A stretch of 44,406 nucleotides of DNA from Atribacteria bacterium SCGC AAA255-G05 (GTDB lineage Bacteria; Atribacterota; Phoenicimicrobiia; Phoenicimicrobiales; Phoenicimicrobiaceae): assembly GCA_000405605.1 (NCBI GenBank), contig ASPA01000005.1, positions 1-44,406 on the forward strand, in the 5' to 3' direction. The position numbers were made by a program, and so were the translations under genes. This document shows, one piece after another, positions 4,705 through 44,406 of this stretch. Positions within the stretch are counted from its first letter, which is position 1; every line of letters starts with the position of its first letter. The notes below the pieces were generated by a model. That model ran no database searches, was not told where the DNA came from, and saw nothing but the letters and a program-made list of their open reading frames with translations.

Positions 4705-5538
4705 ATGAACAAAGAAATAGTACTTCCTTATGGAGATAAGAAAATTTATATAAAGTTACCAGAGGGAAATCTTTCCTGGGTAGTTACCCCAAAAGAAGCA
4801 GTACATATAGAAAATGAAGCAGAAGAGATACGCAGAGCGATTCGTAGTCCTATAGGAACCTCGCCTCTTCCTGAACTTGTCAAACAAAAGGGCAAAAATG
4901 TAGTGTTATTAGTAGATGATAACACTAGAAACACCCCTCAAAAGAGGATATTACCCATTTTATTGGAAGAATTAAATAAGGCAGGGGTAAATGATAATAA
5001 CATCACTGCCCTTATTGCTTTGGGGACACATCGAGCAATGGAGAATTGGGAGATTAGAGAAAGATTTGGAAATGAGATAGTAAATCGTATTCGGTTTGTA
5101 AATCATGACTGGCAAAATATTGAGAATTTAGTAAAAATTAAAAGTAGCGAAGTTCCTTATCCGGTTTGTGTCAATCATTTGTATTATGAGGCTAATATTA
5201 GTATTGGCATAGGTAATATAATTCCACATATGTATACAGGTTGGTCTGGTGGATCAAAAATAGTGCAACCAGGTGTTTGTGGGGAAGAGACTACTGGAGA
5301 AACACACCTTAGAGCAGGGGAGAACGTATATAATATTATAGGAAATTTAGATAATATAGTGCGAAAACAGATGAATGTCATCGCTCGGGCTTCTGAACTT
5401 ACTATGATAGTTAATACTGTATTAAATAAGCGAGGCGAGATAGTAAAAGTAGTAGCTGGGGATTTTGAATTGGCCCATAAAGAGGGAGTTAAATTTGCAT
5501 GGGTCCATTCCTTCTGCGGTTACTTGTACAGGGTTTAA
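4705..5538 (+). pseudogene. LarA-like (nickel-pincer lactate/2-hydroxyacid racemase family) gene, N-terminal about 265 codons only; truncated at nt 5499
   Basis: Lar_N/DUF2088 pattern: DDNTRNTP, ALGTHR, IPHMYTGWSGGSKIVQPG. Family similarity stops after ...ELAHKEGVKFA (nt 5499). The last 12 codons are antisense of the neighbouring gene. The missing C-terminus is found at 43739-44224 on the - strand. Confidence 0.8.
5318..5499 (+). repeat. Left copy of a perfect inverted repeat (partner 44225-44406)
   Basis: Checked base by base: 5318-5499 equals the reverse complement of 44225-44406 (182/182). The outer limit is set by the window end, so the repeat may be longer. Confidence 0.95.
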
Positions 5539-6387
5539 TGCATCAACACCAATTTCAATAAAGTCATCAATTATACTAGAAACATTACCACATGAATGAA
5601 ATAATACTTTAGCGTTACTTTTCTCCTTAACCAGATTAAAGAGTTTTTGATACCTAGGTTTAACTAGTTTTCGATAATAAATAGGTGAAAACATCATTCC
5701 TTTCTGACTAGCAAAATCATCTGCAAAAGCAACAATATCAACATCACTATTTACAGCTTTAAGCGCTGTTTCAGTAGAATCCATATAAAACTTTAAAAGC
5801 CTATCAAGAAGTTCTGCTATAAGGCTTTCCCTATCAACTAAATCAATCATCCATTGCTCAAATCCTCTTAAAAACTGACTCATTGTAGTTATTCCGCCAA
5901 AGATATATAATATTATAGCATAATCAGTTTCTTTCCTTAATTTGATGGCCTTGGAAGATATTTCTTCAACCCTACCTAGATCTTTACCATCAGGCCAGTT
6001 GTAATTATCCATAACTTTAAAACTAAAATCATTTTCGAAGGGGCTTGATATTATGTCCATATAACCATTTTCTGATATTTTCCTCTTAATACCCCATTCA
6101 TCAATATGATAACCCTCATCAGTTATCACATCAAGCCAGCCTTCTGGACCTTTGTTGATTAAACCTCTTGTATCAACATTAAATACTTTTAATATTTTTT
6201 CATCTACTTCTGCACATTGGAATACCAAATGAGATACTTTAGTTTTATTCTTTATGTTCAAATATTTCTTTAATCTTTCATAAGCCTTAACAGTAATAGT
6301 TGTAAATACAGTTGAGCCAAAATCAATAGGAACCCGATCTGGTTTATTATGATTTAAAACTGCTAGAACTCGTTGCCTAGGATTCAT
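5422..6387 (-). CDS. Uroporphyrinogen-decarboxylase (URO-D/MtaA-CmuA type) family methyltransferase, 3'-truncated at nt 5500
   Basis: URO-D family pattern: PDRVPIDFG, DDFASQKGMMFSP, FHSCGNVSSIIDDFIEIGVDALNPVQ. Similarity ends at ...AEGMDP (nt 5500). The last 25 codons are antisense of the larA repeat. About 60-70 family-typical C-terminal residues are absent. Confidence 0.8.
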   Translation of the reverse strand: MNPRQRVLAVLNHNKPDRVPIDFGSTVFTTITVKAYERLKKYLNIKNKTKVSHLVFQCAEVDEKILKVFNVDTRGLINKGPEGWLDVITDEGYHIDEWGIKRKISENGYMDIISSPFENDFSFKVMDNYNWPDGKDLGRVEEISSKAIKLRKETDYAIILYIFGGITTMSQFLRGFEQWMIDLVDRESLIAELLDRLLKFYMDSTETALKAVNSDVDIVAFADDFASQKGMMFSPIYYRKLVKPRYQKLFNLVKEKSNAKVLFHSCGNVSSIIDDFIEIGVDALNPVQVTAEGMDPCKFNSLFMGQFKIPSYYFYYLASLI

Positions 6388-13349: not shown

Positions 13350-14042
13350 TTAAAAAGTCTCCCTAAATTGACAATTCGTTGCCAGACAAATTTTACAAGA
13401 ATCATCTCTTTTAGATGGTATGATAATTTCTTTTCCTATTACCCAGGATAATGATTTTTTAGGAACCATCATATAAGATTCGGTTAATTTTACCCCAATT
13501 TTATCAGCTGGAATAATTTGAAAAATGTTTTTCTGTTGGTGTATATCCCAATCACCGGAGCCAGGACTAAAATGTTTAGTAGTTTGAAGATTTTGTTCTT
13601 TTGCCTCCTGGCAAACTAAACTTTTAATATAATTACTTAAAAACTTAGCCGCTACTGTACCTACCGCATCAAGAGCGATTGCCTTAGGATATTCGTTCTT
13701 AGCAAATAATTCAGCCACTTTTTCTTCTAAATGATTACCTATAGTTGATAATCCAAAAGCTAAGTAACTCGTTCCTCTTAATAAATTAAGCATAGAATTA
13801 TTTATTTCTAAATGTAATCCATTTTCTAAATTAATTCTTCCATCTGAAAAAGATATCTGTTTAATTTTAGTGGAAGAATAAATTCCTTGTGGCTCAAATA
13901 GATTATGACCGCGGGTAATCTCTTCCCGAGCAATCTGCAAAATAACTTCGCTCGGGTTTTTTACCTTATTCTTGCTATAACCTTGATATCTTAAAACTTC
14001 TTCTTCGTCTATTTTTAATTTAATATTTTTTATTATTTTCAT
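13350..14042 (-). CDS. Methionine-synthase (MetH) activation-domain-like protein
   Basis: 230 aa. HFSPGSGDWDIHQQKNIFQIIPADKIGVKLTESYMMVPKKSLSWVIG matches the Met_synt_B12 signature (SPGYGDW...LTES..M.P.KS). Cys-rich C-terminal CKICLATNC. Confidence 0.75.
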   Translation of the reverse strand: MKIIKNIKLKIDEEEVLRYQGYSKNKVKNPSEVILQIAREEITRGHNLFEPQGIYSSTKIKQISFSDGRINLENGLHLEINNSMLNLLRGTSYLAFGLSTIGNHLEEKVAELFAKNEYPKAIALDAVGTVAAKFLSNYIKSLVCQEAKEQNLQTTKHFSPGSGDWDIHQQKNIFQIIPADKIGVKLTESYMMVPKKSLSWVIGKEIIIPSKRDDSCKICLATNCQFRETF

Positions 14043-14066: not shown

Positions 14067-15941
14067 TTAGCTTTTAAAAAACATTGCTTTAATAAATTCT
14101 TCTTGAAAATCAGCCCTTGAAGATAATTCTATATATTTAATATCTTTGGATATCTTTTCACATATTTCCCTCGTTTTTTCAGAAAGCAAAGTTATCTCTG
14201 CTCCTCTTCCGGCTGTATTACCAACTGATTCTATTTTCTCTAAAGACAAATAAGGGATTAATCCTATTCTTATTGCACTTTTCTTATCAATAAAATTACC
14301 AAATGCTCCAGCCAGTAATATTTTTTGAATATCATCCTGAGAAATATTGACCTCTTTTAAAAGTATTTTTATTCCTGCAAATATTGCTGCTTTAGCTAAT
14401 TGCACTTCTCTAACGTCTCTCTGAGTAAGATAAATAGGATTCCCGCTTTCTGTTTCCTTCCCCCTTACTATAAGAAATTTATTACCTTTTTGTCCATCAA
14501 TAATTCTATTTTTAATCTCTTCGCTTAAATTAGGGTCACATTCTCCCCTATCTATAAGCTTGCCACTTTTATCTATCAGCCCTAATTTAACTAATTCAGC
14601 AATTAGATCAATTAACCCCGAACCGCAAATACCCCTAACTTTACCATCTTTTATTACCCTATAAGTAATAGACTTATTATCCATCTTAACTTTATCTATA
14701 GCCCCTTCCGCTGCTCTCATTCCTGAACTAATACGAGCTCCCTCAAAAGCGGGTCCAGCTGCTGTAGAGCAAGTCCACATTTTTCTCTTTGAGCCTAAAA
14801 CTATCTCTCCATTAGTCCCTAAATCGATAAAAAGAGATATTTTCTCATTTTCGTACATACGAATTGCTAAAATTCCGGCTACAATATCCGCTCCTACAAA
14901 TGCTGAAATGTTAGGGAGCATATAAACATTTGCTGTTGGCTCAAGTATTAATTTTGGAATATCTTTTGCTTTTAAATTAAGATTTTCTTTTATTACCGGA
15001 ATATAAGGGGAAGGTGCGATATAAGAAGGATTAAGCCCTAATAAAAAGTGATGCATACAGGTATTACCAGCAATTGTTATTTTATATATATTATTTGTAT
15101 CAACTCCTGCCTTTTGAGCAGCTTCTTTGATTATTTCATTTAAAGTATTTACTATCTCTCTTTGTAATATTTCTAAATTCTCTTTTTGTTTTTGAGCAAA
15201 TCCAATTCGTGAAATAACATCATCACCATAAATAATTTGAGGATTAGCTTTAGCCACAGCAGAAAGCTCTTCACCGGTATTTAAATCAACTAAATATCCT
15301 GCTACTGTAGTTGTTCCAACATCAAAAGCAATACCATAACTAGTTTTAGTAGTATTGCCTTTTTCTACATTAATAATTTCATTATTATACAAAATAACTG
15401 TTATTTTAAAATTAGCTTCCCTAATTAAAACAGGAATTTTCTTTAATATTTCTAAACAGGCCTTTAAATTAGAAATATTTTCTATCTTTTTTAAAGACAA
15501 TCCATCTTTAATTCTTTCCCAATCTGACCTCTGGTCATCTAAAGAAGGTTTTTCCAAATCTAAAAATACCTTCTTTAGATTAGTGCCAAGAGAAAAATTA
15601 TTTTTAATGCGGTCAATATCTCCTTTTAAATTAGAGGAAAATACTCTTTTAAAATCCAACCTAATTTCTGAAGGCAGCTCTATTATGCTATCCTGAAAAA
15701 GTTTAGCTTGACAGGCTAATCTAAAACCTTTTTTTATTTCTTCTTTTGATAAAAGTTCTTCTTCTAAAGGAACAGCTGCGGCAATTCCTTTTTTAACTAA
15801 TACTTTGCACTTACCACAAATTCCCTTTCCTCCACAAGGAGTATTAATGTTCATTCCTACCTCTTCTAATGCTTCCAGTATAGTAGTTCCTTCATTTACT
15901 TTAATGTTTTTTTTATCAGGTAAGAAAGTTATTTTTATCAT
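14067..15941 (-). CDS. Reductive activator of corrinoid proteins (RACo-type: N-terminal [2Fe-2S] ferredoxin + ASKHA ATPase)
   Basis: 624 aa. Plant-type ferredoxin motif CGGKGICGKCKV. ASKHA phosphate motifs (GIAFDVGTTTVAGYL, FIDLGTNGEI, GAFGN). Confidence 0.85.
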   Translation of the reverse strand: MIKITFLPDKKNIKVNEGTTILEALEEVGMNINTPCGGKGICGKCKVLVKKGIAAAVPLEEELLSKEEIKKGFRLACQAKLFQDSIIELPSEIRLDFKRVFSSNLKGDIDRIKNNFSLGTNLKKVFLDLEKPSLDDQRSDWERIKDGLSLKKIENISNLKACLEILKKIPVLIREANFKITVILYNNEIINVEKGNTTKTSYGIAFDVGTTTVAGYLVDLNTGEELSAVAKANPQIIYGDDVISRIGFAQKQKENLEILQREIVNTLNEIIKEAAQKAGVDTNNIYKITIAGNTCMHHFLLGLNPSYIAPSPYIPVIKENLNLKAKDIPKLILEPTANVYMLPNISAFVGADIVAGILAIRMYENEKISLFIDLGTNGEIVLGSKRKMWTCSTAAGPAFEGARISSGMRAAEGAIDKVKMDNKSITYRVIKDGKVRGICGSGLIDLIAELVKLGLIDKSGKLIDRGECDPNLSEEIKNRIIDGQKGNKFLIVRGKETESGNPIYLTQRDVREVQLAKAAIFAGIKILLKEVNISQDDIQKILLAGAFGNFIDKKSAIRIGLIPYLSLEKIESVGNTAGRGAEITLLSEKTREICEKISKDIKYIELSSRADFQEEFIKAMFFKS

Positions 15942-15973: not shown

Positions 15974-16019
15974 GGGCACGATACATCGTGCCCCTACTTG
16001 GGCGTATTGCAATACGCCC
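15974..16019. repeat. Two tandem GC-rich palindromic units (REP-like)
   Basis: GGGCACGA-taca-TCGTGCCC (15974-15993) and GGGCGTATTGCAATACGCCC (16000-16019). Each is followed by CTACT. No U-run on either strand. Located between the fhs stop and the RACo start. Confidence 0.6.
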
Positions 16020-16055
16020 CTACTAACGACTATTCACTATTCACTAACGACTAAT

Positions 16056-17753
16056 TTAGAACAATCCCACCGTATTCCCATTCTCATCGATATCTACTTT
16101 AGTAGCCGCCGGTACGGAAGGTAGCCCTGGCATAGTCATCATGGTTCCTAAAAGAGGATAGAGAAAACCTGCTCCTACTGATGCCCTGACATCTCTTACA
16201 GGTATACGGAAATTACGAGGTCTGCCTTTAACCGAGGGATCATGAGATAGGGAAAGATGAGTCTTAGCCATACAGATGGGGAGTTTATCAAAACCTATTT
16301 CACTAAATAATTTAATCTTTTTTTCAGCTAAGCTGGTATAGTCTACACCATCTGCACCGTAAATTTTGGTGGCGATAGTCTCAATCTTCTCTTTAATGGA
16401 TATATTAAGGGGATAGAGGTGGTGAAAATCGTTGGGTTTGTTGGTTGCTTCCACTACAGCTTCTGCTAATTCTATTGCCCCTTCTCCTCCTTTGGCCCAG
16501 ACTTCATGGGTAACCGCAGCGGTTGCTCCGGCAGCTAAGGCTTTTTCTTTAACCAGTTTGATCTCAGCCGGGGTATCGGTGGGGAAGCGGTTGATAACTA
16601 CTATGGGAGGCAGGCCGTGCAAGAGGACATTTTCTATGTGTTTCTCTAAGTTCTCACAACCTTTAGCTACAGAGTCTAAATCTTCCCGGGCTAGTGTTTC
16701 CTGGTCCAATGGTTCCCCGGCTACTACTTTTATCGCCCCACCGTGCATCTTTAAGGCGCGTACGGTACATACCACCACTGCTGAATCTACTTTCAGGCCG
16801 CTGGTACGGCACTTGATATTACACATCTTTTCAAAACCCATATCAGCACCAAAGCCGGATTCGGTGACCACATAGTCAGCACATTTGCAGGCGATGAGGT
16901 CAGCCAGAACGGAATTATTCCCGTGGGCAATATTGGCAAAGGGACCGCAGTGCATCAGACAGGGTCCGTGTTCCAAGGTCTGGATGAGGTTGGGTTTTAG
17001 AGCCTCTTTTAAGAGGACGGTCATGGCCCCGGCCGCCTTCAGGTCTTCGGCGGTGACCGGGAGGCCATCTTTGGTATAAGCCACGGTCATCCGAGCCAAT
17101 CGCGCTCGAAGATCAAAGATATCGGTAGCCAGAGAGAGGATAGCCATCACCTCTGAGGCCACGGTAATATCATAACCAGTTTCCCGGGGGAGGCCGTTGG
17201 CTTTACCCCCCAGGCCGATCACTATTTGACGTAAGGCACGGTCAGAGATATCCACCACCCGGTTGATATTGATGTTATGGATATCGATACCCAATTTATT
17301 ACCTTTCTGCAGGTGGGTATCCAGCAGGGCACAGAGCAGGTTATTGGCTGCGCCTACGGCATGGATGTCTCCGGTAAAGTGAAGATTAAGGTCTTCCATA
17401 GGAACGACTTGAGAATATCCTCCTCCGGCTGCTCCACCTTTAATACCGAAGACCGGACCCATAGATGGTTCCCTTAAAGTATTAATTACTTTCTTACCTA
17501 TTTTAGCCAGACCCTGGCCTAAGCCGATAGAAGTTACTGTCTTACCTTCACCCAGTGGGGTAGGGGTAATAGCAGTTACTACAATGTATTTGCCTTGAGG
17601 TCTATCTTGTAGTCTCTTTAAGATATCGGGGGAGACTTTGGCTTTGTACTTACCATAAAGGTCTAATTCATCTTCTTTTATCCCGATTGATTCTGCTATT
17701 TCGGTAATAGGTTTTAATTTTGCTTCCTGGGCAATTTTTAGATCTGATTTCAT
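16056..17753 (-). CDS. fhs: Formate--tetrahydrofolate ligase
   Basis: 565 aa. Highly conserved FTHFS pattern (TPTPLGEGKTVTSIGL, EPSMGPVFGIKGGAAGGGY, GFGADMGFEKM). GGAGG SD. Confidence 0.97.
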   Translation of the reverse strand: MKSDLKIAQEAKLKPITEIAESIGIKEDELDLYGKYKAKVSPDILKRLQDRPQGKYIVVTAITPTPLGEGKTVTSIGLGQGLAKIGKKVINTLREPSMGPVFGIKGGAAGGGYSQVVPMEDLNLHFTGDIHAVGAANNLLCALLDTHLQKGNKLGIDIHNININRVVDISDRALRQIVIGLGGKANGLPRETGYDITVASEVMAILSLATDIFDLRARLARMTVAYTKDGLPVTAEDLKAAGAMTVLLKEALKPNLIQTLEHGPCLMHCGPFANIAHGNNSVLADLIACKCADYVVTESGFGADMGFEKMCNIKCRTSGLKVDSAVVVCTVRALKMHGGAIKVVAGEPLDQETLAREDLDSVAKGCENLEKHIENVLLHGLPPIVVINRFPTDTPAEIKLVKEKALAAGATAAVTHEVWAKGGEGAIELAEAVVEATNKPNDFHHLYPLNISIKEKIETIATKIYGADGVDYTSLAEKKIKLFSEIGFDKLPICMAKTHLSLSHDPSVKGRPRNFRIPVRDVRASVGAGFLYPLLGTMMTMPGLPSVPAATKVDIDENGNTVGLF

Positions 17754-17772
17754 GGGGCGCCTCCTTGAGTTT

Positions 17773-18591
17773 TTATTTTATTTCGAAAGTTAACTTACCT
17801 TCTCTATAGGCCTGGATATAGCCACTGCAAAAATTATCCTCTCCCAGAAGAGTCATAGCAGTCTTGGTAATAGCCATCATTCTTTTATCTGTAGAATCAA
17901 TGATTGCTGCATCCATGCCACAGCCCATAGTCAAAATCATAAAGACTTGATTGATGAGCTTTCTCTCCGGAAGACCATAAGATATATTACTTAAACCCGT
18001 GACTATTTTAACTTCAGGATGGGCTTCCTTAACGCTTTTTATCGTTTCCATGGTTACCAAGCCATTTTTATCACTGGTTCCGATAGGCACTACTAAGGGA
18101 TCAATAAATATGTCTTTTAAAGGAACTCCGACATCAGTTAATACTTTTATTAATTTTTTGGCAATCTCAACCCGGGTTTTGGAATTATCAGGAATGCCTC
18201 GTTCATCCATAACAAGCGCTACTACCGCACATTTATATTTTACTATGGCAGGTAATAATCTATCAATTTTTTCTTTCTCACCGGTAATTGAATTAATTAA
18301 AGCTTTGCCTTTGTCCCAATTGTAAACTTCCAAGCCTTTTTCAATCTCTTCTGCGTTAGGACTATCAATGCATAAAGGGACATCTACCGCCTCTTGAACT
18401 GTTTTTACTAACCATTCCATATTTTCTTCTTTGTCACCACTGGCAGCGGAGGAATTTACATCCAGCATCTCAGCTCCACCTTCTACTTGCTTTTTGGCTA
18501 AATCCTGAATAGATTTTACATCTCTATTCTCAATCATTTCTCTAACTTGTTTCCGAGCAGAATTTAATTTTTCTCCGATAATTAACATCAT
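17773..18591 (-). CDS. Methyltetrahydrofolate:corrinoid methyltransferase (pterin-binding, MeTr/MtgA-like)
   Basis: 272 aa. IIGEKLNS start, LDVN, CIDS, NSI and GLSNISYGLP motifs of the pterin-binding TIM barrel. GGAGG SD. Confidence 0.85.
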   Translation of the reverse strand: MMLIIGEKLNSARKQVREMIENRDVKSIQDLAKKQVEGGAEMLDVNSSAASGDKEENMEWLVKTVQEAVDVPLCIDSPNAEEIEKGLEVYNWDKGKALINSITGEKEKIDRLLPAIVKYKCAVVALVMDERGIPDNSKTRVEIAKKLIKVLTDVGVPLKDIFIDPLVVPIGTSDKNGLVTMETIKSVKEAHPEVKIVTGLSNISYGLPERKLINQVFMILTMGCGMDAAIIDSTDKRMMAITKTAMTLLGEDNFCSGYIQAYREGKLTFEIK

Positions 18592-18679
18592 TTAACCTCC
18601 TTTTTTTACAAATACAAATAAATTATATCAAATGATTATACCTTATTGCTCAGTATCTATTGCAATAAGAATATTTGTT

Positions 18680-19699
18680 CTAAAGGTTGGTTATCCCCTT
18701 GACAATTTCAGGAATGATTTCAAACAGATCCCCGACTACGGCTATATCCGCAATCTGCATCATAGGTGTATCGGGGTTTTTGTCTATAGCTATGATCAAA
18801 TCACAAGACTGCATTCCTACAAGATGCTGAATCTGTCCGGAAATACCGCAGGCTATATAAACCTTTGTCTGAACTGTCTGTCCTGTCTGTCCGACCTGGT
18901 GTGCATAAGGGATCCAGCCCGAATCAACAGCTGCCCTGCTTGCACCTACAGCAGCTCCGCCTACCCTTTGGGCAAACTGTTTTAAAAGCTTAAAGCCTTC
19001 TGGACCTTTCATTCCCCTTCCGCCTGATATTATTATCTGTGCATCGGCAAGATTATAAGCAGTTTCGGTACTATGAAAAACATCTATTATCTGCTTGATC
19101 TTTTCGCTATCACTTGTAAGCATTTCTTCTTTTATAATTCTGCCGGTACGGCCGGGATCAGGTTCCGGTGATTTCATGACTCTTGGTCGTACGGTGGCCA
19201 TCTGAGGTCTGTGGTTTGAACAGCGGATAGTAGCCATGATATTACCACCAAAAGCCGGTCTTGTTTGAAGAAGGTCACCGTTTTCAGGGTCAATTGAAAG
19301 ACCCGTGCAGTCAGCTGTAAGACCACAATGTGTCATTACGGAAACTCGTGGAATCAGGGCACGTCCTCTCGTTGTGGCTCCGCAGATCACGACTTCGGGC
19401 TTATATTTTATGATAAGACGTTTCATGATTTTTGCTTCGGTTTCATCAATAAAACCGGATAATCCCGGATGGTCAACCACTATTACAACATCCGCTCCAT
19501 AGGCAAAAAGCGACTCTGGTTTTTCTTCAATACCGGATCCCATGACAACAACCCAGACTTCACTCTTTCTGAGATCTGCAAGAGTTCTTGCAGCACCTGT
19601 CAGCTCGTGTGTCACAGATTGTATTCCGCCGGCCAAAATCTCAGCGACTACCCATATATTGCGATATTCTTTTCTTTTAGCATCTGTAAAAGCTATCAT
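18680..19699 (-). CDS. etfA: Electron transfer flavoprotein alpha subunit (EtfA/FixB type)
   Basis: 339 aa. C-terminal FAD domain pattern: IIISGGRGMKGPEGF, VGASRAAVDSGW, QVGQTGQTV, YIACGISGQIQH. Confidence 0.9.
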   Translation of the reverse strand: MIAFTDAKRKEYRNIWVVAEILAGGIQSVTHELTGAARTLADLRKSEVWVVVMGSGIEEKPESLFAYGADVVIVVDHPGLSGFIDETEAKIMKRLIIKYKPEVVICGATTRGRALIPRVSVMTHCGLTADCTGLSIDPENGDLLQTRPAFGGNIMATIRCSNHRPQMATVRPRVMKSPEPDPGRTGRIIKEEMLTSDSEKIKQIIDVFHSTETAYNLADAQIIISGGRGMKGPEGFKLLKQFAQRVGGAAVGASRAAVDSGWIPYAHQVGQTGQTVQTKVYIACGISGQIQHLVGMQSCDLIIAIDKNPDTPMMQIADIAVVGDLFEIIPEIVKGITNL

Positions 19700-19715
19700 T
19701 TTTATCTCCTCTGGA

Positions 19716-20504
19716 TCAAACTATACTTCGCAGTCTTAACTCTCTTAGCAGACTCTGTGCACATTCTATTGAAGATCCTTCAATCTTTTTTGTGCTTGTG
19801 TGTCTGGGTGGTGGAGGCTGCGTTTTTACAACCCTTGTGGGTGATCCGTTCAGACCGATTTTTGATGTATCCGCACCTATATCACCGGGTTTCCATACTG
19901 GTACTTCACATTTATTTGAAGCCAGTCGGCCTTTAAGTGATGGTACACGGGGTGTATTGATGTCTTTTACGACGGTTATTACTGCAGGAAAAGACATTTC
20001 ACATATATCATAACCATCTTCATGCATCCTTTTGACCCTGATGGATGAGGAAGATATCTCTTCCACAGCCATAACATAAGTTGCTTGAAGCCAGTCAAGA
20101 TGAGCTGCAATTCCAGGACCTACCTGGGCTGTATCACCATCTATGGCCTGCTTACCGCAAATGACCAGATCAATATCCCCGATCTTTTTAATAGCTTTTG
20201 CAAGGGCATAGCTTGTAGCCCATGTATCCGAACCACCAAAAGCCCGGTCACTGAGCAGAATGGCTCTGTCAACTCCCACTGAAATAGCCTCTCTCAGGCT
20301 TGCTTCAGCTTTTGGCGGACCCATTGACAGGGCAATCACTTCTCCTCCGAATTTGTCTCTCAACTGTACACCTTCTTCCACAGCGTAAGTGTCAAAAGGA
20401 TTCAAGATCGCTTTCATACCTTCTCTTATGATGCGTTTTGTTTCAGGATCGATTTTAGCATCGTTAGTTGCCGGTACCTGCTTGATACATACTACTATTT
20501 TCAT
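19716..20504 (-). CDS. etfB: Electron transfer flavoprotein beta subunit (EtfB/FixA type), bifurcating-type signature
   Basis: 262 aa. MKIVVCIKQVP start. CGKQAIDGDTAQVGPGIAAHLDW motif. Confidence 0.9.
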   Translation of the reverse strand: MKIVVCIKQVPATNDAKIDPETKRIIREGMKAILNPFDTYAVEEGVQLRDKFGGEVIALSMGPPKAEASLREAISVGVDRAILLSDRAFGGSDTWATSYALAKAIKKIGDIDLVICGKQAIDGDTAQVGPGIAAHLDWLQATYVMAVEEISSSSIRVKRMHEDGYDICEMSFPAVITVVKDINTPRVPSLKGRLASNKCEVPVWKPGDIGADTSKIGLNGSPTRVVKTQPPPPRHTSTKKIEGSSIECAQSLLRELRLRSIV

Positions 20505-20529
20505 AACGCCTCCCTGCGATTACGGGTTC

Positions 20530-21327
20530 TCAGACCCAGGTATCTTTAATCAGATGGTATTGTGTTTTAAATCCGAGCAGTGATAGGTAAACACCGCACC
20601 CCGGATATAATTTGTGGAGCATTTTTAAAGTGGATATCGGGTCAAATTCTGTATTCTCAGGTATTTCATAACCGACTGCTTCCGAAAGAAGATGCAGTTT
20701 TCTGCTCATCCAGGCCTCTACAATTACCGGTATTCCAGGATATTTTTCAAGAAGTCTGTCGACAATTTCATTTCTCTCTATCAAAGGCTGGGTAATAATG
20801 AAAGTGGCCCCTGCTTTTATTTTTCTTTCCATCTTTTCAAGTTCGTGTTCTTCCGGTTCATAAGGATTGAATGCGACTCCGAGTACAAAAGTATCCGGAT
20901 ACTCTCGGTTTATGTACTTTAACAGTTCAACAGAAGTGACGGACTCGACATCAGTGGCGCCTACATCGGAAGGATGAAGCTTTGGAAGACGCTCCGAACC
21001 ATCTCCTGTTATTATCAAGAGATATCTGATTCCTTTTGTCTTACATATGTTAAGAATGTTGTCTAGATCATCTTTTGTATGAAAAGTATTCAGGTGAATC
21101 ATTACCTGCTCTGGTATGACGGGAAGGTCAAGTTCCTCAATTATTTCTGTTCCCTGGAATGACAGGAGACCCATTGCATTATCGGTTATACATGCACAAT
21201 AACCGCTGTCCATAACCCTGAGATATTTATTTGAAAATCTTTCAAGATCCTTTTCAAGCTTTTCTGAATCCTGTTTGGGTGGTAAAACTTCAACGTGGTA
21301 GATCTTATTCTGGATGTGATGAATCAT
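20530..21327 (-). CDS. Divergent methylenetetrahydrofolate reductase (MTHFR)-family protein
   Basis: 265 aa. Loose but colinear MTHFR pattern: VEVLPPK, CITDNAMG, IHLNTFHT, IRYLLIITGDGS, LGVAFNPYEPE, KIKAGATFIITQP, IPVIVEAW. Shorter and more diverged than classical MetF. Confidence 0.65.
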   Translation of the reverse strand: MIHHIQNKIYHVEVLPPKQDSEKLEKDLERFSNKYLRVMDSGYCACITDNAMGLLSFQGTEIIEELDLPVIPEQVMIHLNTFHTKDDLDNILNICKTKGIRYLLIITGDGSERLPKLHPSDVGATDVESVTSVELLKYINREYPDTFVLGVAFNPYEPEEHELEKMERKIKAGATFIITQPLIERNEIVDRLLEKYPGIPVIVEAWMSRKLHLLSEAVGYEIPENTEFDPISTLKMLHKLYPGCGVYLSLLGFKTQYHLIKDTWV

Positions 21328-21504
21328 GATACTCTCCTATCTCAATTAAATTGGTTAAATTAAGCCTTTTCCCCGTAATATGCCACCGGCTTCTCTATGG
21401 TTCCATCCTGGGGATCTTCATATCTTATCTTAATTTTCCCTTCTTTGTCTTGCATCATTTGAGAAGGAAAGAAATAGATTTAAGATATTGAATATTATAA
21501 ATAT

Positions 21505-22137
21505 TTAGGCTATAAAAGATTTTGCACTATCCACAGCAGAAGCAGCATCAGGAGAATAAGCATCTGCCCCTATCTGATCAGCATAATTTTGAGTTATCGG
21601 TGCTCCCCCAATCATTATCTTTACTTTATCTCTAAGACCGGCAGCTTCCAGCGCCTTTACAACTTCTGGCATATTTACCATCGTAGTAGTTAAAAGAGCA
21701 GACATACCCACTATATCTGGTTGATCTACTTTTACAGCTTCCACAAATTTATCTACAGACACATCTGTTCCCAAATCTATAACTTCAAAACCTCCGCCCT
21801 CTAACATCATCTTTACTAAATTTTTCCCAATATCGTGCAAATCTCCCTTTACAGTGCCTATTGCTACTTTACCTATATTTTTTACTCCGGTTTCAACTAA
21901 CTTGGGTCGTAAAATATCCATTCCTGCATGCATTGCTCGAGCAGCAATTAAGACTTCCGGAACATATACCTCATTTCTTTTAAATTTTCCCCCAATAATT
22001 TCCATTCCTTTAATTAAACCATTTTCTAAGATATCCTTGGGTAATAAATTCTCTTCCAAAGCTTGTTTAACAAGTTCTGCTACTTTTTCTGCATCTCCTC
22101 TTTGTAGGGCTTCAGATACATTATTTAAATCTACCAT
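21505..22137 (-). CDS. Corrinoid (cobalamin-binding) methyl-carrier protein
   Basis: 210 aa. B12-binding_2 helical cap plus a Rossmann domain with the DxHxxG motif (GDLHDIGKN) and MSALLTTTM. GGAGG SD. Confidence 0.9.
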   Translation of the reverse strand: MVDLNNVSEALQRGDAEKVAELVKQALEENLLPKDILENGLIKGMEIIGGKFKRNEVYVPEVLIAARAMHAGMDILRPKLVETGVKNIGKVAIGTVKGDLHDIGKNLVKMMLEGGGFEVIDLGTDVSVDKFVEAVKVDQPDIVGMSALLTTTMVNMPEVVKALEAAGLRDKVKIMIGGAPITQNYADQIGADAYSPDAASAVDSAKSFIA

Positions 22138-22427: not shown

Positions 22428-23864
22428 TTACATTAATCCTTTTATCTTTGACTTTAGTTTCTGGTAAACTTCTATAGGAATAGGTAATGGTTTATGATTA
22501 GTTAGAATTTCTTCTACTTTTTCCCGTGCTCGAGTTCTGGTATCTTTGCTTCCTAAATTTTCCCATTCAGTTCTATGTTGACGATCTGCAAGAGTGGGGA
22601 AATATAATTCTTTACGCATATTTTGTACTGTATGCATCTCGGCAAGAAAATTCCCAGCTGGACCAACTTTAGCAATTAAATCTTCTGCCAAGGTCTCTTT
22701 ATCTACTTTAATCCCTTGCACCATTCGCATAACCATCCCTAAAATATCATTATCAATTACTGCTTTTTCAAAACTGATAGTCATACAAAACTCTAAGTTA
22801 CCAGCAGCATCATGGATAAAATTCGCTCCTGACAAAGCAACAGCTAACGCGCTGATTGCCGATTCATATCCTGCTTGAGCATCAGGAATTTTGGAATCAG
22901 ACATTCCAGCAGTAGCATAATAAGGAAGTTTTACATTCTGAGCTAATTGGGCTACACCAGCATTTATAAGACCCGGCTCCGCTCCGGCTCCAAGATAAAT
23001 ACCTTTTTGCATATCCATAATAGAAGCGGTTGAAGCATATATAACCGGAGTTCCGGGGTTAACTAACTGAGCCAGGGTTACACAAGCCAAAGTCTCTGCG
23101 TTAATTAAAACTAAATCACCTGCTAAAGTAACTGGACCAGTTGCTCCGGTTAGAACTTCACTGGGGCAAGCTACCGGTAGACCTTTACGAGCAATCTCAA
23201 TTAGAAATTCAGTATAAGTATTTTCTAATTTTAAAGGACTCATGACACAAGTAATAAAAGAAATAAATGGACATTTTTTTAACTGCTCTGCACCTCCAGC
23301 AATTTCTTCTGCCATTTTAATAGTTTCCAGTAATCCTGCTTTATCATAGATACCTCCCATAATATGTTTGGAAGTATTGGAAATACCTGCGTAAAATCTA
23401 TTTACATCAACTGTTTCTTTGGGTAATTCTGTAGGATATAAAGGTAAGAGATAAAAATGAACATTATCTAAGGCATCAACTAACTTAGCAAATTGCGCAA
23501 CATCTTCTAAAGTAGAAGGTCTCTTTTTGTTAGTTTCCCAATCAAGTACGTTTAAAACAGTACCACCAGTCCCAAAATATACATTTGAACCTTCTAAAAC
23601 AAGATTATGTTTATCTTCTCTACCGTAAAGAATCACCTTGGAAGGAGCTGTGTCAATAGCATTTTCTACCATCTTATGGGGTATTTTTACTATACGCTTG
23701 TCAAAATCAACCTCTGCTCCTTTTTCTTTAAATATATCTAATGCTTCTTTACAGTTTACTTCCATCCCTACATTTTCCAAAAGTCGAAGTGATGTGTTAT
23801 GAATATCTTTGATTCCCTCTGGCGAAAGAGGTTTATATTGACCTCCCGGTAAACCACCTATCAT
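22428..23864 (-). CDS. MttB-superfamily methyltransferase, non-pyrrolysine member (substrate:corrinoid methyltransferase; substrate unknown)
   Basis: 478 uninterrupted codons with no in-frame TAG. Family pattern throughout (LSPEGIKDIHNTSLRLLENVGMEV, FGTGG, GATGPVTLAG, YYATAGMSDSK, GANFIHDAAG, GPAGNFL). GGAGG SD. Confidence 0.9.
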   Translation of the reverse strand: MIGGLPGGQYKPLSPEGIKDIHNTSLRLLENVGMEVNCKEALDIFKEKGAEVDFDKRIVKIPHKMVENAIDTAPSKVILYGREDKHNLVLEGSNVYFGTGGTVLNVLDWETNKKRPSTLEDVAQFAKLVDALDNVHFYLLPLYPTELPKETVDVNRFYAGISNTSKHIMGGIYDKAGLLETIKMAEEIAGGAEQLKKCPFISFITCVMSPLKLENTYTEFLIEIARKGLPVACPSEVLTGATGPVTLAGDLVLINAETLACVTLAQLVNPGTPVIYASTASIMDMQKGIYLGAGAEPGLINAGVAQLAQNVKLPYYATAGMSDSKIPDAQAGYESAISALAVALSGANFIHDAAGNLEFCMTISFEKAVIDNDILGMVMRMVQGIKVDKETLAEDLIAKVGPAGNFLAEMHTVQNMRKELYFPTLADRQHRTEWENLGSKDTRTRAREKVEEILTNHKPLPIPIEVYQKLKSKIKGLM

Positions 23865-29490: not shown

Positions 29491-30846
29491 CTACTTTCTC
29501 ATTCTTTTTCTATACTCATAAGGTGATATACCTGCCTTTTTTTTAAAAACTTTACAAAAATAACTTTGATCTGTACAACCTATTTCAAAGGAAATCCGAG
29601 TTGCACTCCATCGAGTAGTTTCTAATAATCTTTTAGCTTCTTCAATCCGAACGTTAGTTAAAAATTGAAATAGAGTATATCCGGTTTCCTTTTTGAAAAT
29701 ATGGCTTAAATAATAAGGACTTAAATAAACTACCTTGCTTATGTCTTCTAATTTTATCTTCTTTTTATAATTTGTTCGAATAAATTCTTGCGCGTTTCTT
29801 ATAATATTAACATTTTTAATATTTTTATTCTCATAAACACACTCAGTAAATCTATCTAAAACTTCTACGATCCAAACACATAATTCTTCAATAGATTTAA
29901 GCATACCTAATTTTTGAATATATTCAAAGTTCAGTCCCAAAATCATTTCTAATTCTGCATTACCTTCTACGGCAGCTCGGGAAAGAACTACGGCTAATTC
30001 CAGGATTCGAGCTCGTACTATTTCTATTCGACCAGCATTTTTAAATAGTATCTTACCTAAAATTTTGTTTAAAACCTCTTTGGCTCCTTCTTTATCCCCT
30101 AACCTAACTCTCCTTAGCAGCTCTCTCTCTGTTTCTAAAGGATAAATCGAACTGATATAAATAAAAGAATCCTCCTCTTCTTCTTCTTTTTCAAGTAATT
30201 CTAACTCTTTTCTTTTCATCATCTGAATTTCTTCGGATATTTTTGCTTGTTGAATATATTTTTCTTGGCGTATCTTAGTATCTAACAACTCCGTATTAGA
30301 TAAATAATTAGCTGCAATATAAAGTATATCTGCAGCAGCCATAACCTTTTTTTCAGAAACAATTCTTAGCTTCTCCAGAGCTTCTCTTAATTTAAATTCT
30401 TCTATTCCTAAATTCTTAGTCTTTTCTATTACTTCTTTTATAAAATTAGGAGCTGGTTTTCGCATTAAAATTCCCTCAGAAATAAAAGAACCTAAAAGTT
30501 CCCCATTAATTAACACCGGGGTAATCCAGGTTATGATACCGAAACGGCATTGAAAAATATAAGAGTTTCCATATTCAGCACTTCTTAAACTATTATCATA
30601 GAATGATTTATAGCACTCTTTTCTTCCCTCTGAACTGCTTTGAACTAATTTACAAAAGGCACTCCCACTTCTAAGAGAATTTGAAGGTGAGAATATTCTC
30701 TCACCCTTATTATTTAAAAAATGAACTTGGAATTCAGTTAATCTCACGTAAGAATCCAAGATCCATTTAATTATTTTTTCCATTTGAAAAATATTTACAT
30801 CATTGGGTTCTTTATTTACTGAATTATTCTGCATAATTTTCCCCAT
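29491..30846 (-). CDS. PocR sensory domain + AraC-type HTH transcriptional regulator
   Basis: 451 aa. N-terminal PocR-like region (FCKLVQSSSEGRKECYKS...FQCRFGI). C-terminal double HTH (YLSHIFKKETGYTLFQFLTNVRIEEAKRLL...GCTDQSYFCKVFKKKAGISPYEYR). Confidence 0.85.
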   Translation of the reverse strand: MGKIMQNNSVNKEPNDVNIFQMEKIIKWILDSYVRLTEFQVHFLNNKGERIFSPSNSLRSGSAFCKLVQSSSEGRKECYKSFYDNSLRSAEYGNSYIFQCRFGIITWITPVLINGELLGSFISEGILMRKPAPNFIKEVIEKTKNLGIEEFKLREALEKLRIVSEKKVMAAADILYIAANYLSNTELLDTKIRQEKYIQQAKISEEIQMMKRKELELLEKEEEEEDSFIYISSIYPLETERELLRRVRLGDKEGAKEVLNKILGKILFKNAGRIEIVRARILELAVVLSRAAVEGNAELEMILGLNFEYIQKLGMLKSIEELCVWIVEVLDRFTECVYENKNIKNVNIIRNAQEFIRTNYKKKIKLEDISKVVYLSPYYLSHIFKKETGYTLFQFLTNVRIEEAKRLLETTRWSATRISFEIGCTDQSYFCKVFKKKAGISPYEYRKRMRK

Positions 30847-34744: not shown

Positions 34745-35205
34745 TTTTTTTCTACGGTTTAGCTTTCCATTTCGCGAGGCCTTCCTTTAGGACATCTATC
34801 TATTATAGTAATATCTAAAGCCTCAACCATCTAGTTAAGAAACTCTTCAGATCCTATGGTTGTCACGGTAGGACAGCCAGTTACCTGACTGCCCCCGCAC
34901 AGATCCTCTTTAGAATCTCACATTTAGCGATTCTTTTGTATAGGCTTCCGTTGCAGAAATGACGGCGCCATCTGCATTCATCTTTATTTACGAGGCTGTA
35001 TCATTCACTTTTGGGAAGTACGGTCTTCCCTATGGCCTATCTGTTTCCCTGTGTACGCTTCATCTAATGGTTACCCATTTTGATGCAACGCTTGGTATGG
35101 GTGGTTGGTTAGACCTTGCCCAGCAAGGACTTTCACCCTGCAAGACATATAAAACTTCTTGGCGCTCTTTCGCTAAAAGTTTTCGAATTATTAATCCGGC
35201 ACACC
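34745..35205 (-). ncRNA. Unclassified structured-RNA-like element (copy B), about 460 nt; strand assigned from GNRA loops
   Basis: GC-richer than its flanks. On the - strand there are two GUAA-capped hairpins (34874-34891; 35061-85 with an internal loop). Further clean hairpins at 35013-35030 and 35114-35128. No - strand ORF of 60 aa or more. The + strand ORF of copy A is broken in copy B (ATG to ACG, CAG to TAG). No known RNA family recognised. Confidence 0.4.
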
Positions 35206-43738: not shown

Positions 43739-44406
43739 CTATTTGAGCTTATCAATCCTGAACATAATATCTCCTCCATGAGTAACTACTCCTATCTTTA
43801 ACTCTTCACATTTTTGTTTTAAAACATAATTTAAAGCACTATTAATCTGATTAAAAACTTTAAAACCAATTTTAGATGCCTCATTAGGATCAATTCCTTC
43901 ACTAACCAGAATTACTTTTATACGCTGACGAGTGACATCCATAGCCAAGTAAGTAGCCAGTGCGACCTTATCTTTGATCTTTCCTTCTTTGAACCGTTTT
44001 TTAGCTTCTTGAGGGGAGCAAGTCCCCAAACTTATAAAATCTGGGTGATCAGGAGCAATTCCTTCGGGATCAGGACATAAAAGAATAAGTGTACCCCTAT
44101 CTTTTACAGCCATACCACAGTTATTTAACGCTTTTATTGATTGCCAGAAATCTCTATCTGCTGGATGACTACTTGCTATAATAATATCCTGTTGCTCTGC
44201 AATATTAAAGCAATAAATCCCTTCTGCAAATTTAACTCCCTCTTTATGGGCCAATTCAAAATCCCCAGCTACTACTTTTACTATCTCGCCTCGCTTATTT
44301 AATACAGTATTAACTATCATAGTAAGTTCAGAAGCCCGAGCGATGACATTCATCTGTTTTCGCACTATATTATCTAAATTTCCTATAATATTATATACGT
44401 TCTCCC
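43739..44406 (-). CDS. LarA-like racemase-family gene, 3' portion; frame open to the window edge (5' end outside window)
   Basis: The frame continues through the repeat (..RKQMNVIARASELTMIVNTVLNKRGEIVKVVAGDFELAHKEGVKFA) straight into the family-typical C-terminal domain (EGIYCFNIAEQQDIIIASSHPADRDFWQSIKAL...). Here the gene looks intact. Confidence 0.85.
   Translation of the reverse strand, partial: ENVYNIIGNLDNIVRKQMNVIARASELTMIVNTVLNKRGEIVKVVAGDFELAHKEGVKFAEGIYCFNIAEQQDIIIASSHPADRDFWQSIKALNNCGMAVKDRGTLILLCPDPEGIAPDHPDFISLGTCSPQEAKKRFKEGKIKDKVALATYLAMDVTRQRIKVILVSEGIDPNEASKIGFKVFNQINSALNYVLKQKCEELKIGVVTHGGDIMFRIDKLK
44225..44406 (-). repeat. Right copy of the perfect inverted repeat (partner 5318-5499)
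   Basis: Reverse complement identical to 5318-5499 at all 182 positions I could compare. Runs into the window end. Confidence 0.95.

Follow-up and report, generated by a model that had tools for sequence, protein, structure and literature searches.

A candidate Etf-dependent methylenetetrahydrofolate reductase encoded by a conserved three-gene unit of Atribacterota and other anaerobes

The stretch analysed here (hereafter, the window) comprises positions 1 to 44,406 of contig ASPA01000005.1 from Atribacteria bacterium SCGC AAA255-G05. Its minus strand carries three adjacent genes (hereafter, the trio) coding for a protein of the methylenetetrahydrofolate reductase (MTHFR) family, referred to below as the MTHFR-like protein, and for the small (EtfB) and large (EtfA) subunits of an electron-transferring flavoprotein (Etf). 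The genes are separated by only 25 nt (20505-20529) and 16 nt (19700-19715), at the same coordinates and in the same direction as reported in the initial annotation, and a Shine-Dalgarno-like AGGAG/GGAGG precedes each of them. The trio is part of a run of nine co-directional genes, which encode, in this order, an MttB-family methyltransferase, a corrinoid protein, the MTHFR-like protein, EtfB, EtfA, a methyltransferase acting on methyl-tetrahydrofolate (methyl-THF) and corrinoid protein (MT2), formate-tetrahydrofolate ligase (Fhs), a RACo/AcsV-like activase and a protein resembling the activation domain of MetH (Table 1). Pfam and NCBIfam matches agree with the earlier placement of the trio between the corrinoid protein and the MT2/Fhs genes. 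No terminator-like site was found in the intergenic stretches between 13 and 24.7 kb, and Rfam detected no riboswitch near the trio. The initial annotation had also reported that acyl-CoA dehydrogenase, FixCX and MetV-like genes are missing from the vicinity. Indeed, Pfam scans of 40 open reading frames (ORFs) of the window revealed no acyl-CoA dehydrogenase, no FAD-linked (GlcD-type) oxidase, no FixC/X and no MetV (MTHFR_C, PF12225), and the gaps within the trio are too small to accommodate an additional gene.

Conservation of the MTHFR-like/EtfB/EtfA unit

Relatives of the MTHFR-like protein were collected by scanning genome contigs, one genome per species, which resulted in 282 stretches encoding such a relative; 80 loci were retrieved, and the window proteins served as tblastn queries to score the neighbouring genes. 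A locus was considered informative if at least 600 bp of sequence was available downstream. EtfB is encoded directly downstream and on the same strand in 74 of the 75 informative loci, both EtfB and EtfA are found downstream in 68 of 69, and the median gap between the MTHFR-like and EtfB genes is about 25 nt. The carriers include Atribacterota, many Clostridia, Erysipelotrichaceae, Spirochaetota (termite-gut Treponema among them) and Planctomycetota, as well as bins labelled as Lentisphaerales/Verrucomicrobiota and Akkermansia. The closest relatives, up to 94% identical, come mostly from Atribacterota, and one Bacillota-labelled bin encodes a protein with 98% identity. In loci below 85% identity, the mean identities of the MTHFR-like protein, EtfB and EtfA are 73, 75 and 70%, respectively, compared with 44% for MT2 and 55% for Fhs. 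In addition, the identity of the MTHFR-like protein correlates with that of EtfB (r = 0.82) and EtfA (r = 0.87). Because the identities of the three proteins co-vary and exceed the conservation of MT2 and Fhs, the trio appears to be inherited as one unit, which is probably horizontally mobile among anaerobes.

Clustering of all ORFs from the 80 loci revealed no other recurrent dehydrogenase family, with no GlcD-type protein, FixCX or acyl-CoA dehydrogenase, and the MetV family does not recur either. This strengthens the proposal, made from the window alone, that the MTHFR-like protein is the only plausible dehydrogenase partner of the Etf; by this distribution it appears to be the sole conserved one, hence a new class of Etf partners. 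The genes that do recur encode MT2 (60 loci, by tblastn), Fhs (34), a formate channel-like protein of the FNT type (17) and corrinoid proteins (17), and, more rarely, a PocR-AraC regulator (10), RACo (9) and FolD (5).

Neighbour-joining placed all 80 Etf-linked sequences in the same clade, which otherwise contains only the sequence from locus L017 and three uninformative ones; all other genes lacking an adjacent Etf are positioned outside this clade. A second scan, this time of metagenomes and seeded with divergent relatives, provided 80 further loci (L083-L162), 48 of which have enough downstream sequence. Etf genes follow in only three of the 48, two of them belonging to the core clade and one representing a deep branch with 53% identity, whereas the other 45 have neither Etf nor any conserved neighbour downstream. 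Thus, the co-occurrence of the short MTHFR-like family with etfBA across taxa, which had been put forward for a survey, holds for one monophyletic subclade (74/75 loci) and is ruled out for the family as a whole by the 45 of 48 sister-clade genes without Etf. Etf coupling appears to be a derived trait of this subclade.

These results bear on one alternative, namely, that the adjacency reflects co-regulation or chance and that the Etf serves a dehydrogenase encoded elsewhere. Organisms often have more than one etf set (PMC9888536), as this alternative would need. However, the arrangement is shared by 74 of 75 loci from several phyla (median gap about 25 nt), the Etf-linked members form a monophyletic clade, and the identities of the three proteins co-vary. 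Moreover, cultured Clostridium thermosuccinogenes (protein AUS96928.1) carries the trio by itself, flanked by glycoside hydrolase genes on one side and a PFOR gene on the other. We consider chance adjacency effectively refuted.

Table 1. Features of the window, with coordinates and the matches on which their assignment is based
Feature	Position	Strand	Match
MTHFR-like protein, 265 aa	20530-21327	minus	PF02219 MTHFR, 55.6 bits (cut-off 24)
EtfB, small subunit, bifurcating type, 262 aa	19716-20504	minus	PF01012 ETF, 155.9 bits
EtfA, large subunit, 339 aa	18680-19699	minus	PF01012, 144.6 bits; PF00766 ETF_alpha, 117.3 bits
Methyl-THF:corrinoid methyltransferase (MT2)	17773-18591	minus	NCBIfam PRK07535, 344.5 bits (cut-off 259); Pfam Pterin_bind
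Fhs, formate-tetrahydrofolate ligase	16056-17753	minus	PF01268, 866 bits; NF010030, 830.8 bits (cut-off 652)
Corrinoid (B12-binding) protein, MtgC/MtbC type	21505-22137	minus	PF02310 and PF02607; TIGR02370, 215.5 bits (cut-off 215.3)
MttB-superfamily substrate:corrinoid methyltransferase (MT1), without pyrrolysine	22428-23864	minus	PF06253, 396.7 bits
RACo/AcsV-like reductive activase of corrinoid proteins	14067-15941	minus	RACo_C_ter, Raco_middle, RACo_linker and Fer2 domains
MetH-activation-domain-like protein, final gene of the run	13350-14042	minus	PF02965, 26 bits (cut-off 25), weak
PocR-sensor/AraC regulator	29491-30846	minus	PF10114 and HTH_18
PYLIS_3, within the MT1 gene	22805-22904	minus	Rfam, 62.1 bits (gathering score 38)
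Group II intron, domains D1-D4	34885-35133	minus	RF02005, 98.1 bits
ORF with LarA N-terminal domain alone	4705-5538	plus	
ORF with LarA C-terminal domain alone	43739-44365	minus	
URO-D-family (MtaA-like?) gene	5422-6387	minus	

The MTHFR-like protein and the type of its Etf

By sequence, the MTHFR-like protein is remote from characterised reductases. Its match to PF02219 spans only profile positions 10-184 of 287, corresponding to the N-terminal two thirds, and its scores against NCBIfam MTHFR equivalogs are far below the cut-offs (39.5 versus 293.7 and 46.3 versus 310). Among solved structures, the sequence matched only yeast Met12 (29.7 bits, or 38.4 bits with the family profile) and T. thermophilus MetF (about 16 bits). 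Since only 27 of 1.84 billion cluster representatives, many of them fragments, scored below 1e-30, and since canonical MTHFRs reached just about 45 bits in the same search, the family appears to form a small isolated island in sequence space. Relatives at 31-50% identity, found in the representative library, keep the catalytic residues.

The fold is nevertheless that of MTHFR. The AlphaFold2 model (pLDDT 85.5, pTM 0.86) consists of eight strand-helix units arranged in a beta/alpha barrel, and the top 21 Foldseek matches in the PDB all have the MTHFR fold, with template modelling (TM) scores of 0.60-0.71 and E-values down to 1.6e-12. The best of them are all MTHFRs, with TM of 0.64-0.71. The list is headed by the T. 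thermophilus, C. thermophilum, yeast, human and E. coli enzymes, followed by MSMEG_6649 and Cthe_2304. The last of these, an orphan MTHFR-like protein of the anaerobe Clostridium thermocellum (3ijd; TM 0.63, 15% identity), was solved with two molecules of 5-methyl-THF. Consistently, hhalign comparison of the MTHFR-like family with canonical MetF gave a probability of 99.8%.

To map individual residues, we used an E. coli MetF sequence, the numbering of which reproduces the known E28, T59, H88, R118, D120, A177, Q183 and F223. Glu28, Thr59, His88, Gly119, Asp120, Lys172, Ala177 and Gln183 of E. coli MetF correspond to E13, T48, H78, G108, D109, K169, A174 and Q180 of the window protein, respectively. 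The initial annotation had called for a check of the flavin- and folate-binding residues, and the only mapped one that differs is Arg118, which aligns with Thr107 and is Ser or Thr throughout the clade. More generally, the (near-)invariant positions of the canonical MetF alignment are kept. The catalytic Glu, Asp and Gln (E13, D109 and Q180) are invariant in all 126 family sequences considered (80 Etf-linked and 46 from sister clades). T48, H78 and K169, whose E. coli counterparts Thr59, His88 and Lys172 we take to be flavin contacts, are conserved across the Etf-linked clade. The sister group likewise keeps the catalytic triad and has Pro or Cys at the position of Thr59. The window protein is nearer to the motifs of anaerobe MetF from the MetFV types, such as E-x-x-PP-K/R, GDP, NP and TQP, than to E. 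coli MetF.

Based on fold and residue conservation, we propose that the MTHFR-like protein is the catalytic subunit acting on methyl-/methylene-THF. It could instead be an MTHFR-fold protein with another substrate, or a non-catalytic folate-binding one, with the Etf engaged in an unrelated redox reaction; its extreme divergence from characterised MTHFRs and the loss of Arg118 are compatible with such a role, and 3ijd provides a crystallised example of an MTHFR-fold protein merely binding 5-methyl-THF. However, the retention of the (near-)invariant MetF positions, including the complete Glu/Asp/Gln triad, and the recurrence of the folate one-carbon (C1) enzymes MT2, Fhs and FolD as neighbours make this very improbable.

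The Etf-linked clade is further distinguished by C44, C46, T48, C95 and C244, which in the sister clades are replaced by V/I, S, P/C, A and F/Y/W, respectively. Each of the four cysteines is conserved in at least 76 of the 80 Etf-linked members. In the model they are located in beta2, in alpha3 and just ahead of beta8, and a shared iron-sulfur site standing in for MetV seems geometrically unlikely. The sister-clade replacements of these cysteines look like core packing.

Comparison of the window EtfB with solved structures gives 203-230 bits for CarD (6fah), C. difficile EtfB (5ol2), T. maritima FixA (7koe), A. fermentans EtfB (4kpu) and LctB (7qh2), and 64-114 bits for non-bifurcating ETFs, human ETFB having 114. 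Similarly, EtfA scores 319 bits against CarE and 241-300 bits against T. maritima FixB, 5ol2_A, 4kpu_A and LctC, compared with 102-149 bits against non-bifurcating ETFs, the highest value being for human ETFA. Thus, the scores of both subunits are about twofold higher with solved bifurcating Etfs than with human or Paracoccus ETF. The alignment of EtfA begins only at residue 67 of CarE, hence the N-terminal ferredoxin domain is predicted to be absent.

The signature of the beta-FAD/NADH site leads to the same assignment. The string AIDGDTAQVGPGIA is found in the window EtfB, and the motif reads AIDGDTAQVGP. In printed alignments CarD, 5ol2_B and 4kpu_B have AIDGDTAQVG(P/S), LctB has TTDGDTAQVGP and T. 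maritima FixA (7koe_A) has AVDGDTGQVGP. A peptide search located the corresponding site of human ETFB (1efv_B) in GKQAIDDDCNQTGQ, where it reads AIDDDCNQTGQ. The initial annotation was therefore correct in assigning the DGDTAQVGP signature to bifurcating Etfs. By these comparisons the window Etf is of the bifurcating (group 2, two-FAD) type, its cofactor content and ferredoxin reduction being predicted.

Proposed reaction and genomic setting

We propose that the trio encodes one enzyme, an Etf-dependent methylene-THF reductase/methyl-THF dehydrogenase, and from the comparisons above we judge this slightly more probable than its negation. The physical complex, its flavin content, the coupling to ferredoxin and the direction of the reaction are what we infer. 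The enzyme would be soluble and heterotrimeric, with the MTHFR-like subunit in the place that Bcd, CarC or LctD occupy in known Etf complexes. Its TIM barrel would bind folate and, most likely, a flavin of its own, would interconvert 5-methyl-THF and 5,10-methylene-THF (E0' about -200 mV), and would pass electrons one at a time to and from the mobile alpha-FAD of EtfA. This high-potential branch would be coupled by the bifurcating beta-FAD of EtfB with NAD+/NADH (-320 mV) on the one hand and with ferredoxin or flavodoxin on the other, so that the overall reaction would be CH2-THF + 2 NADH + Fd(ox) <-> CH3-THF + 2 NAD+ + Fd(red). Methylene-THF (-200 mV) and pyruvate (-190 mV) have been listed together as the first acceptor for bifurcation, and a bifurcating MTHFR reaction has been estimated at about -5 kJ/mol (PMC5861303). 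Being near equilibrium, the reaction should be reversible.

In the window, the enzyme is expected to run oxidatively. The MT1 of the MttB family lacking pyrrolysine, the corrinoid protein and MT2 would load the methyl group of a substrate onto THF. Oxidation of methyl-THF with NAD+ is thermodynamically challenging, at +23 kJ/mol (PMC13391211), which substantiates the uphill character attributed to this step in the initial annotation. Reduced ferredoxin would pull it by confurcation, after which FolD (encoded elsewhere) and Fhs would give formate and ATP; a route from methyl groups to formate in which Fhs yields the ATP is already established (PMC10284823). As CODH/ACS is absent from most Atribacterota (PMC11227167), the methyl group here could only be oxidised. 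Taken together, the neighbours supplying methyl groups to THF, the harvest of ATP by Fhs and the general absence of CODH/ACS favour the oxidative direction in the window.

In other genomes the same enzyme may work reductively, where the trio stands alone or is linked to Fhs and FolD. Four spirochaetal loci (L051, L055, L056 and L062) encode the MTHFR-like protein, EtfB, EtfA, Fhs, FNT and FolD together, i.e. a near-complete methyl branch of the folate pathway. The set is co-directional in L051 and L056, Fhs is on the opposite strand in L055 and L062, and in all four MT2 is located upstream on the opposite strand. This suggests that the trio provides the MTHFR of the pathway in (termite-gut) spirochaetes. 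One may ask, then, whether a reductive housekeeping or acetogenic MTHFR, serving methionine synthesis or the Wood-Ljungdahl pathway and producing reduced ferredoxin, is what the trio encodes, with the link to MttB in the window being secondary. The termite-gut Treponema loci, the isolated trio of C. thermosuccinogenes and the closeness of the reaction to equilibrium are in line with this view. Conversely, in the window and in related Atribacterota the trio is embedded between MT1/corrinoid and MT2/RACo genes, and Atribacterota generally lack CODH/ACS; we therefore regard an exclusively reductive role as quite unlikely. This alternative differs in direction alone and could operate by the same enzyme mechanism.

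A number of observations weigh against the Etf-dependent reductase/dehydrogenase. The divergence of the MTHFR-like protein is strong (55.6 bits with Pfam, 16-38 bits with solved MTHFRs and TM of about 0.65-0.7). Arg118, a ligand of the FAD phosphate in E. coli MetF, is replaced by Ser/Thr, and flavin-free MTHFR-fold proteins exist and are found among the Foldseek matches (7wmz and 3ijd); because of these two facts, flavin binding by the MTHFR-like protein is uncertain. Sister clades with 40-55% identity work without an adjacent Etf, and within the Etf-linked clade locus L017 (7001-10755) is the sole one devoid of Etf, the MTHFR-like gene being followed instead by those for Fhs and an FNT-type channel. 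FolD is not found in the window and no ferredoxin gene is linked to the trio. Finally, the C. thermosuccinogenes trio is not accompanied by any methyltransferase or Fhs gene, and hence the oxidative catabolic role is not general.

The lack of a linked ferredoxin gene is also relevant to the mode of electron transfer. The complex might be real and yet non-bifurcating, with the Etf acting as an NADH-oxidising entry module (like RnfC2 in MetFV-RnfC2 of A. woodii) or as a shuttle to another acceptor, without ferredoxin. Neither ferredoxin, flavodoxin nor FixCX genes are linked to the trio, and the MTHFRs of A. woodii and B. producta are known to be non-bifurcating (PMC5861303). On the other hand, the scores of both Etf subunits and the motif at the beta-FAD/NADH site place them with the solved bifurcating Etfs, and a plain NADH-linked enzyme would leave the barrier of +23 kJ/mol in place. 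In addition, carriers such as Atribacterota, Clostridia and Treponema live by fermentation, which makes Etf:quinone routes unlikely in them. Overall, we consider the non-bifurcating complex unlikely.

As for the remaining genes of the run and its surroundings, the MttB-family protein is equally close to MtgB (2qne/9yce) and to 7xcl, with about 295 bits each in the PDB search, which makes glycine betaine one possible substrate among others. A search for an in-frame TAG in this gene found none. Rfam detected within it PYLIS_3, the pyrrolysine insertion sequence of mttB, the match starting at codon 321, which is ATG (Met; ...YYATAG|MSDSK...). The gene looks like a non-pyrrolysine MttB that has retained a PYLIS-like stretch. 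A homolog of the MetH-activation-like protein was seen in only one related locus (L008). The gene for the PocR-AraC protein is located 5.6 kb upstream of the MttB-family gene. Its homologs occur beside the corrinoid/MTHFR-like cluster in 10 related loci (L003, L006, L008, L028, L037, L041, L044, L049, L063 and L078), and the protein is a possible regulator of the window cluster.

The GC content is 0.40-0.46 over the Fhs, MT2 and MTHFR-like/Etf genes (16001-22000), compared with 0.30-0.34 in the flanks. The contrast is repeated in the Atribacterota locus L006 (0.43 versus 0.33), where the trio exceeds its flanks by about 10 points, and it weakens in other phyla; in most other genomes the excess is just 1-5 points. 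Recent horizontal transfer was not accepted as the cause of the rise at 16-22 kb, which amino-acid constraint explains equally well; constraint, high expression or horizontal origin may be its source. Elsewhere in the window there are genes for TRAP transporters, for sugar-phosphate enzymes and for regulators. The window also harbours a group II intron D1-D4 domain, with no long ORF listed nearby, and the N- and C-terminal domains of LarA in two separate ORFs 38 kb apart. The URO-D-family gene overlaps the end of the first of these ORFs and adjoins TRAP transporter genes.

Novelty and relation to known systems

No description of an Etf-linked MTHFR was found in the full-text literature, subscription-only papers being outside the search. 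A classification from 2021 distinguishes E. coli-type, 2S, 3S and 6S enzymes and an X type linked to NuoEFG (PMC8515935), and a paper from July 2026 lists four known MTHFR types (PMC13391211). An Etf type appears in neither, in keeping with the initial annotation, which knew of no MTHFR architecture with Etf. Coupling of EtfAB to MTHFR was once hypothesised for C. ljungdahlii and judged unlikely, because every etf set there has its own dehydrogenase (PMC8515935). In reviews of bifurcating enzymes (PMC5861303 among them), the only MTHFR listed is MetFV-HdrABC-MvhD. The same synteny is visible in Fig. 6c of a 2024 single-cell study of JS1 Atribacterota, where it carries the automatic labels mtgB-metH-carD-carE and is given without comment (PMC10826368). 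The trio thus appears to combine a bifurcating module and an enzyme fold that are each known, in an arrangement that is both conserved and new. Whether it represents a fifth architectural class of MTHFR, the first that is coupled to Etf and truly ferredoxin-linked in bifurcation or confurcation, removing a barrier in JS1-type methyl fermenters and reducing ferredoxin in the reverse direction, we regard as an even bet.

No redox step of the Wood-Ljungdahl/folate C1 pathway is less settled than the one catalysed by MTHFR, the electron carrier of which varies by organism. If the proposal is correct, the +23 kJ/mol barrier to methyl-THF oxidation would be removed in methyl-group fermenters such as JS1 Atribacterota, by a simple soluble ferredoxin-linked solution resembling the proven lactate dehydrogenase-Etf mechanism. 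In reverse, the enzyme would be the long-postulated energy-conserving, ferredoxin-reducing MTHFR of acetogenic termite-gut spirochaetes and many Clostridia. Calculations of ATP yield for methylotrophic fermentation and acetogenesis would then change in the carriers, which include abundant, mostly uncultured subsurface Atribacterota, termite-gut Treponema and digester Clostridia, and the TIM-barrel MTHFR would be one more fold among the few known Etf partners. Cultured C. thermosuccinogenes, where the trio is an isolated unit, makes the hypothesis testable.

Among known MTHFRs, the MetFV-HdrABC-MvhD complex of Moorella thermoacetica (type IV/6S) catalyses the same reaction and has likewise been proposed to be an NADH-dependent bifurcating enzyme. 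Its bifurcating component, however, is HdrA rather than Etf, MetV is required, and the second acceptor, though unidentified, is not ferredoxin. The window lacks MetV, Hdr and MvhD, and its MetF-like subunit belongs to a separate and very divergent clade. MetFV of C. ljungdahlii (2S) and MetFV-RnfC2 of A. woodii (3S) also contain anaerobe MetF TIM barrels, the motifs of which the window protein resembles, but both use the iron-sulfur subunit MetV and have no linked etf genes. MSMEG_6649 (7wmz), a flavin-independent mycobacterial protein, and Cthe_2304 (3ijd) resemble the MTHFR-like protein in being short, divergent and of the MTHFR fold (TM about 0.6). They differ in their low identity (14-16%), in having no Etf link and in either using NADH directly or having no known function; in contrast to them, the window protein keeps the equivalents of Thr59, His88 and Lys172.

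Folate-linked oxidation of N-methyl groups with electrons passing to ETF is known from the mitochondrial dimethylglycine and sarcosine dehydrogenases. These enzymes, however, have another fold and depend on a non-bifurcating ETF (one FAD plus AMP), quinone and aerobic conditions. The closest solved relatives of both Etf subunits come from Bcd-EtfAB, CarCDE and FixABCX (5ol2, 4kpu, 6fah and 7koe; 209-319 bits), in which electrons are expected to pass from beta-FAD to alpha-FAD and on to the partner flavin. Their partners are of the acyl-CoA dehydrogenase fold or FixCX, unlike the MTHFR-like protein, and acceptors of such complexes have much higher potentials of -10, -30 and +90 mV (PMC5861303). 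By analogy, the closest functional counterpart appears to be LctBCD of A. woodii (PDB 7qh2). Its dehydrogenase is a GlcD-type FAD protein rather than an MTHFR TIM barrel, and LctC has the N-terminal ferredoxin domain that the window EtfA lacks. Nevertheless, its EtfBA is likewise of the bifurcating type, matching the window subunits with 203 and 241 bits, its substrate couple is at -190 mV compared with -200 mV in our proposal, and it is known to run as confurcation, reduced ferredoxin and the substrate together reducing NAD+.

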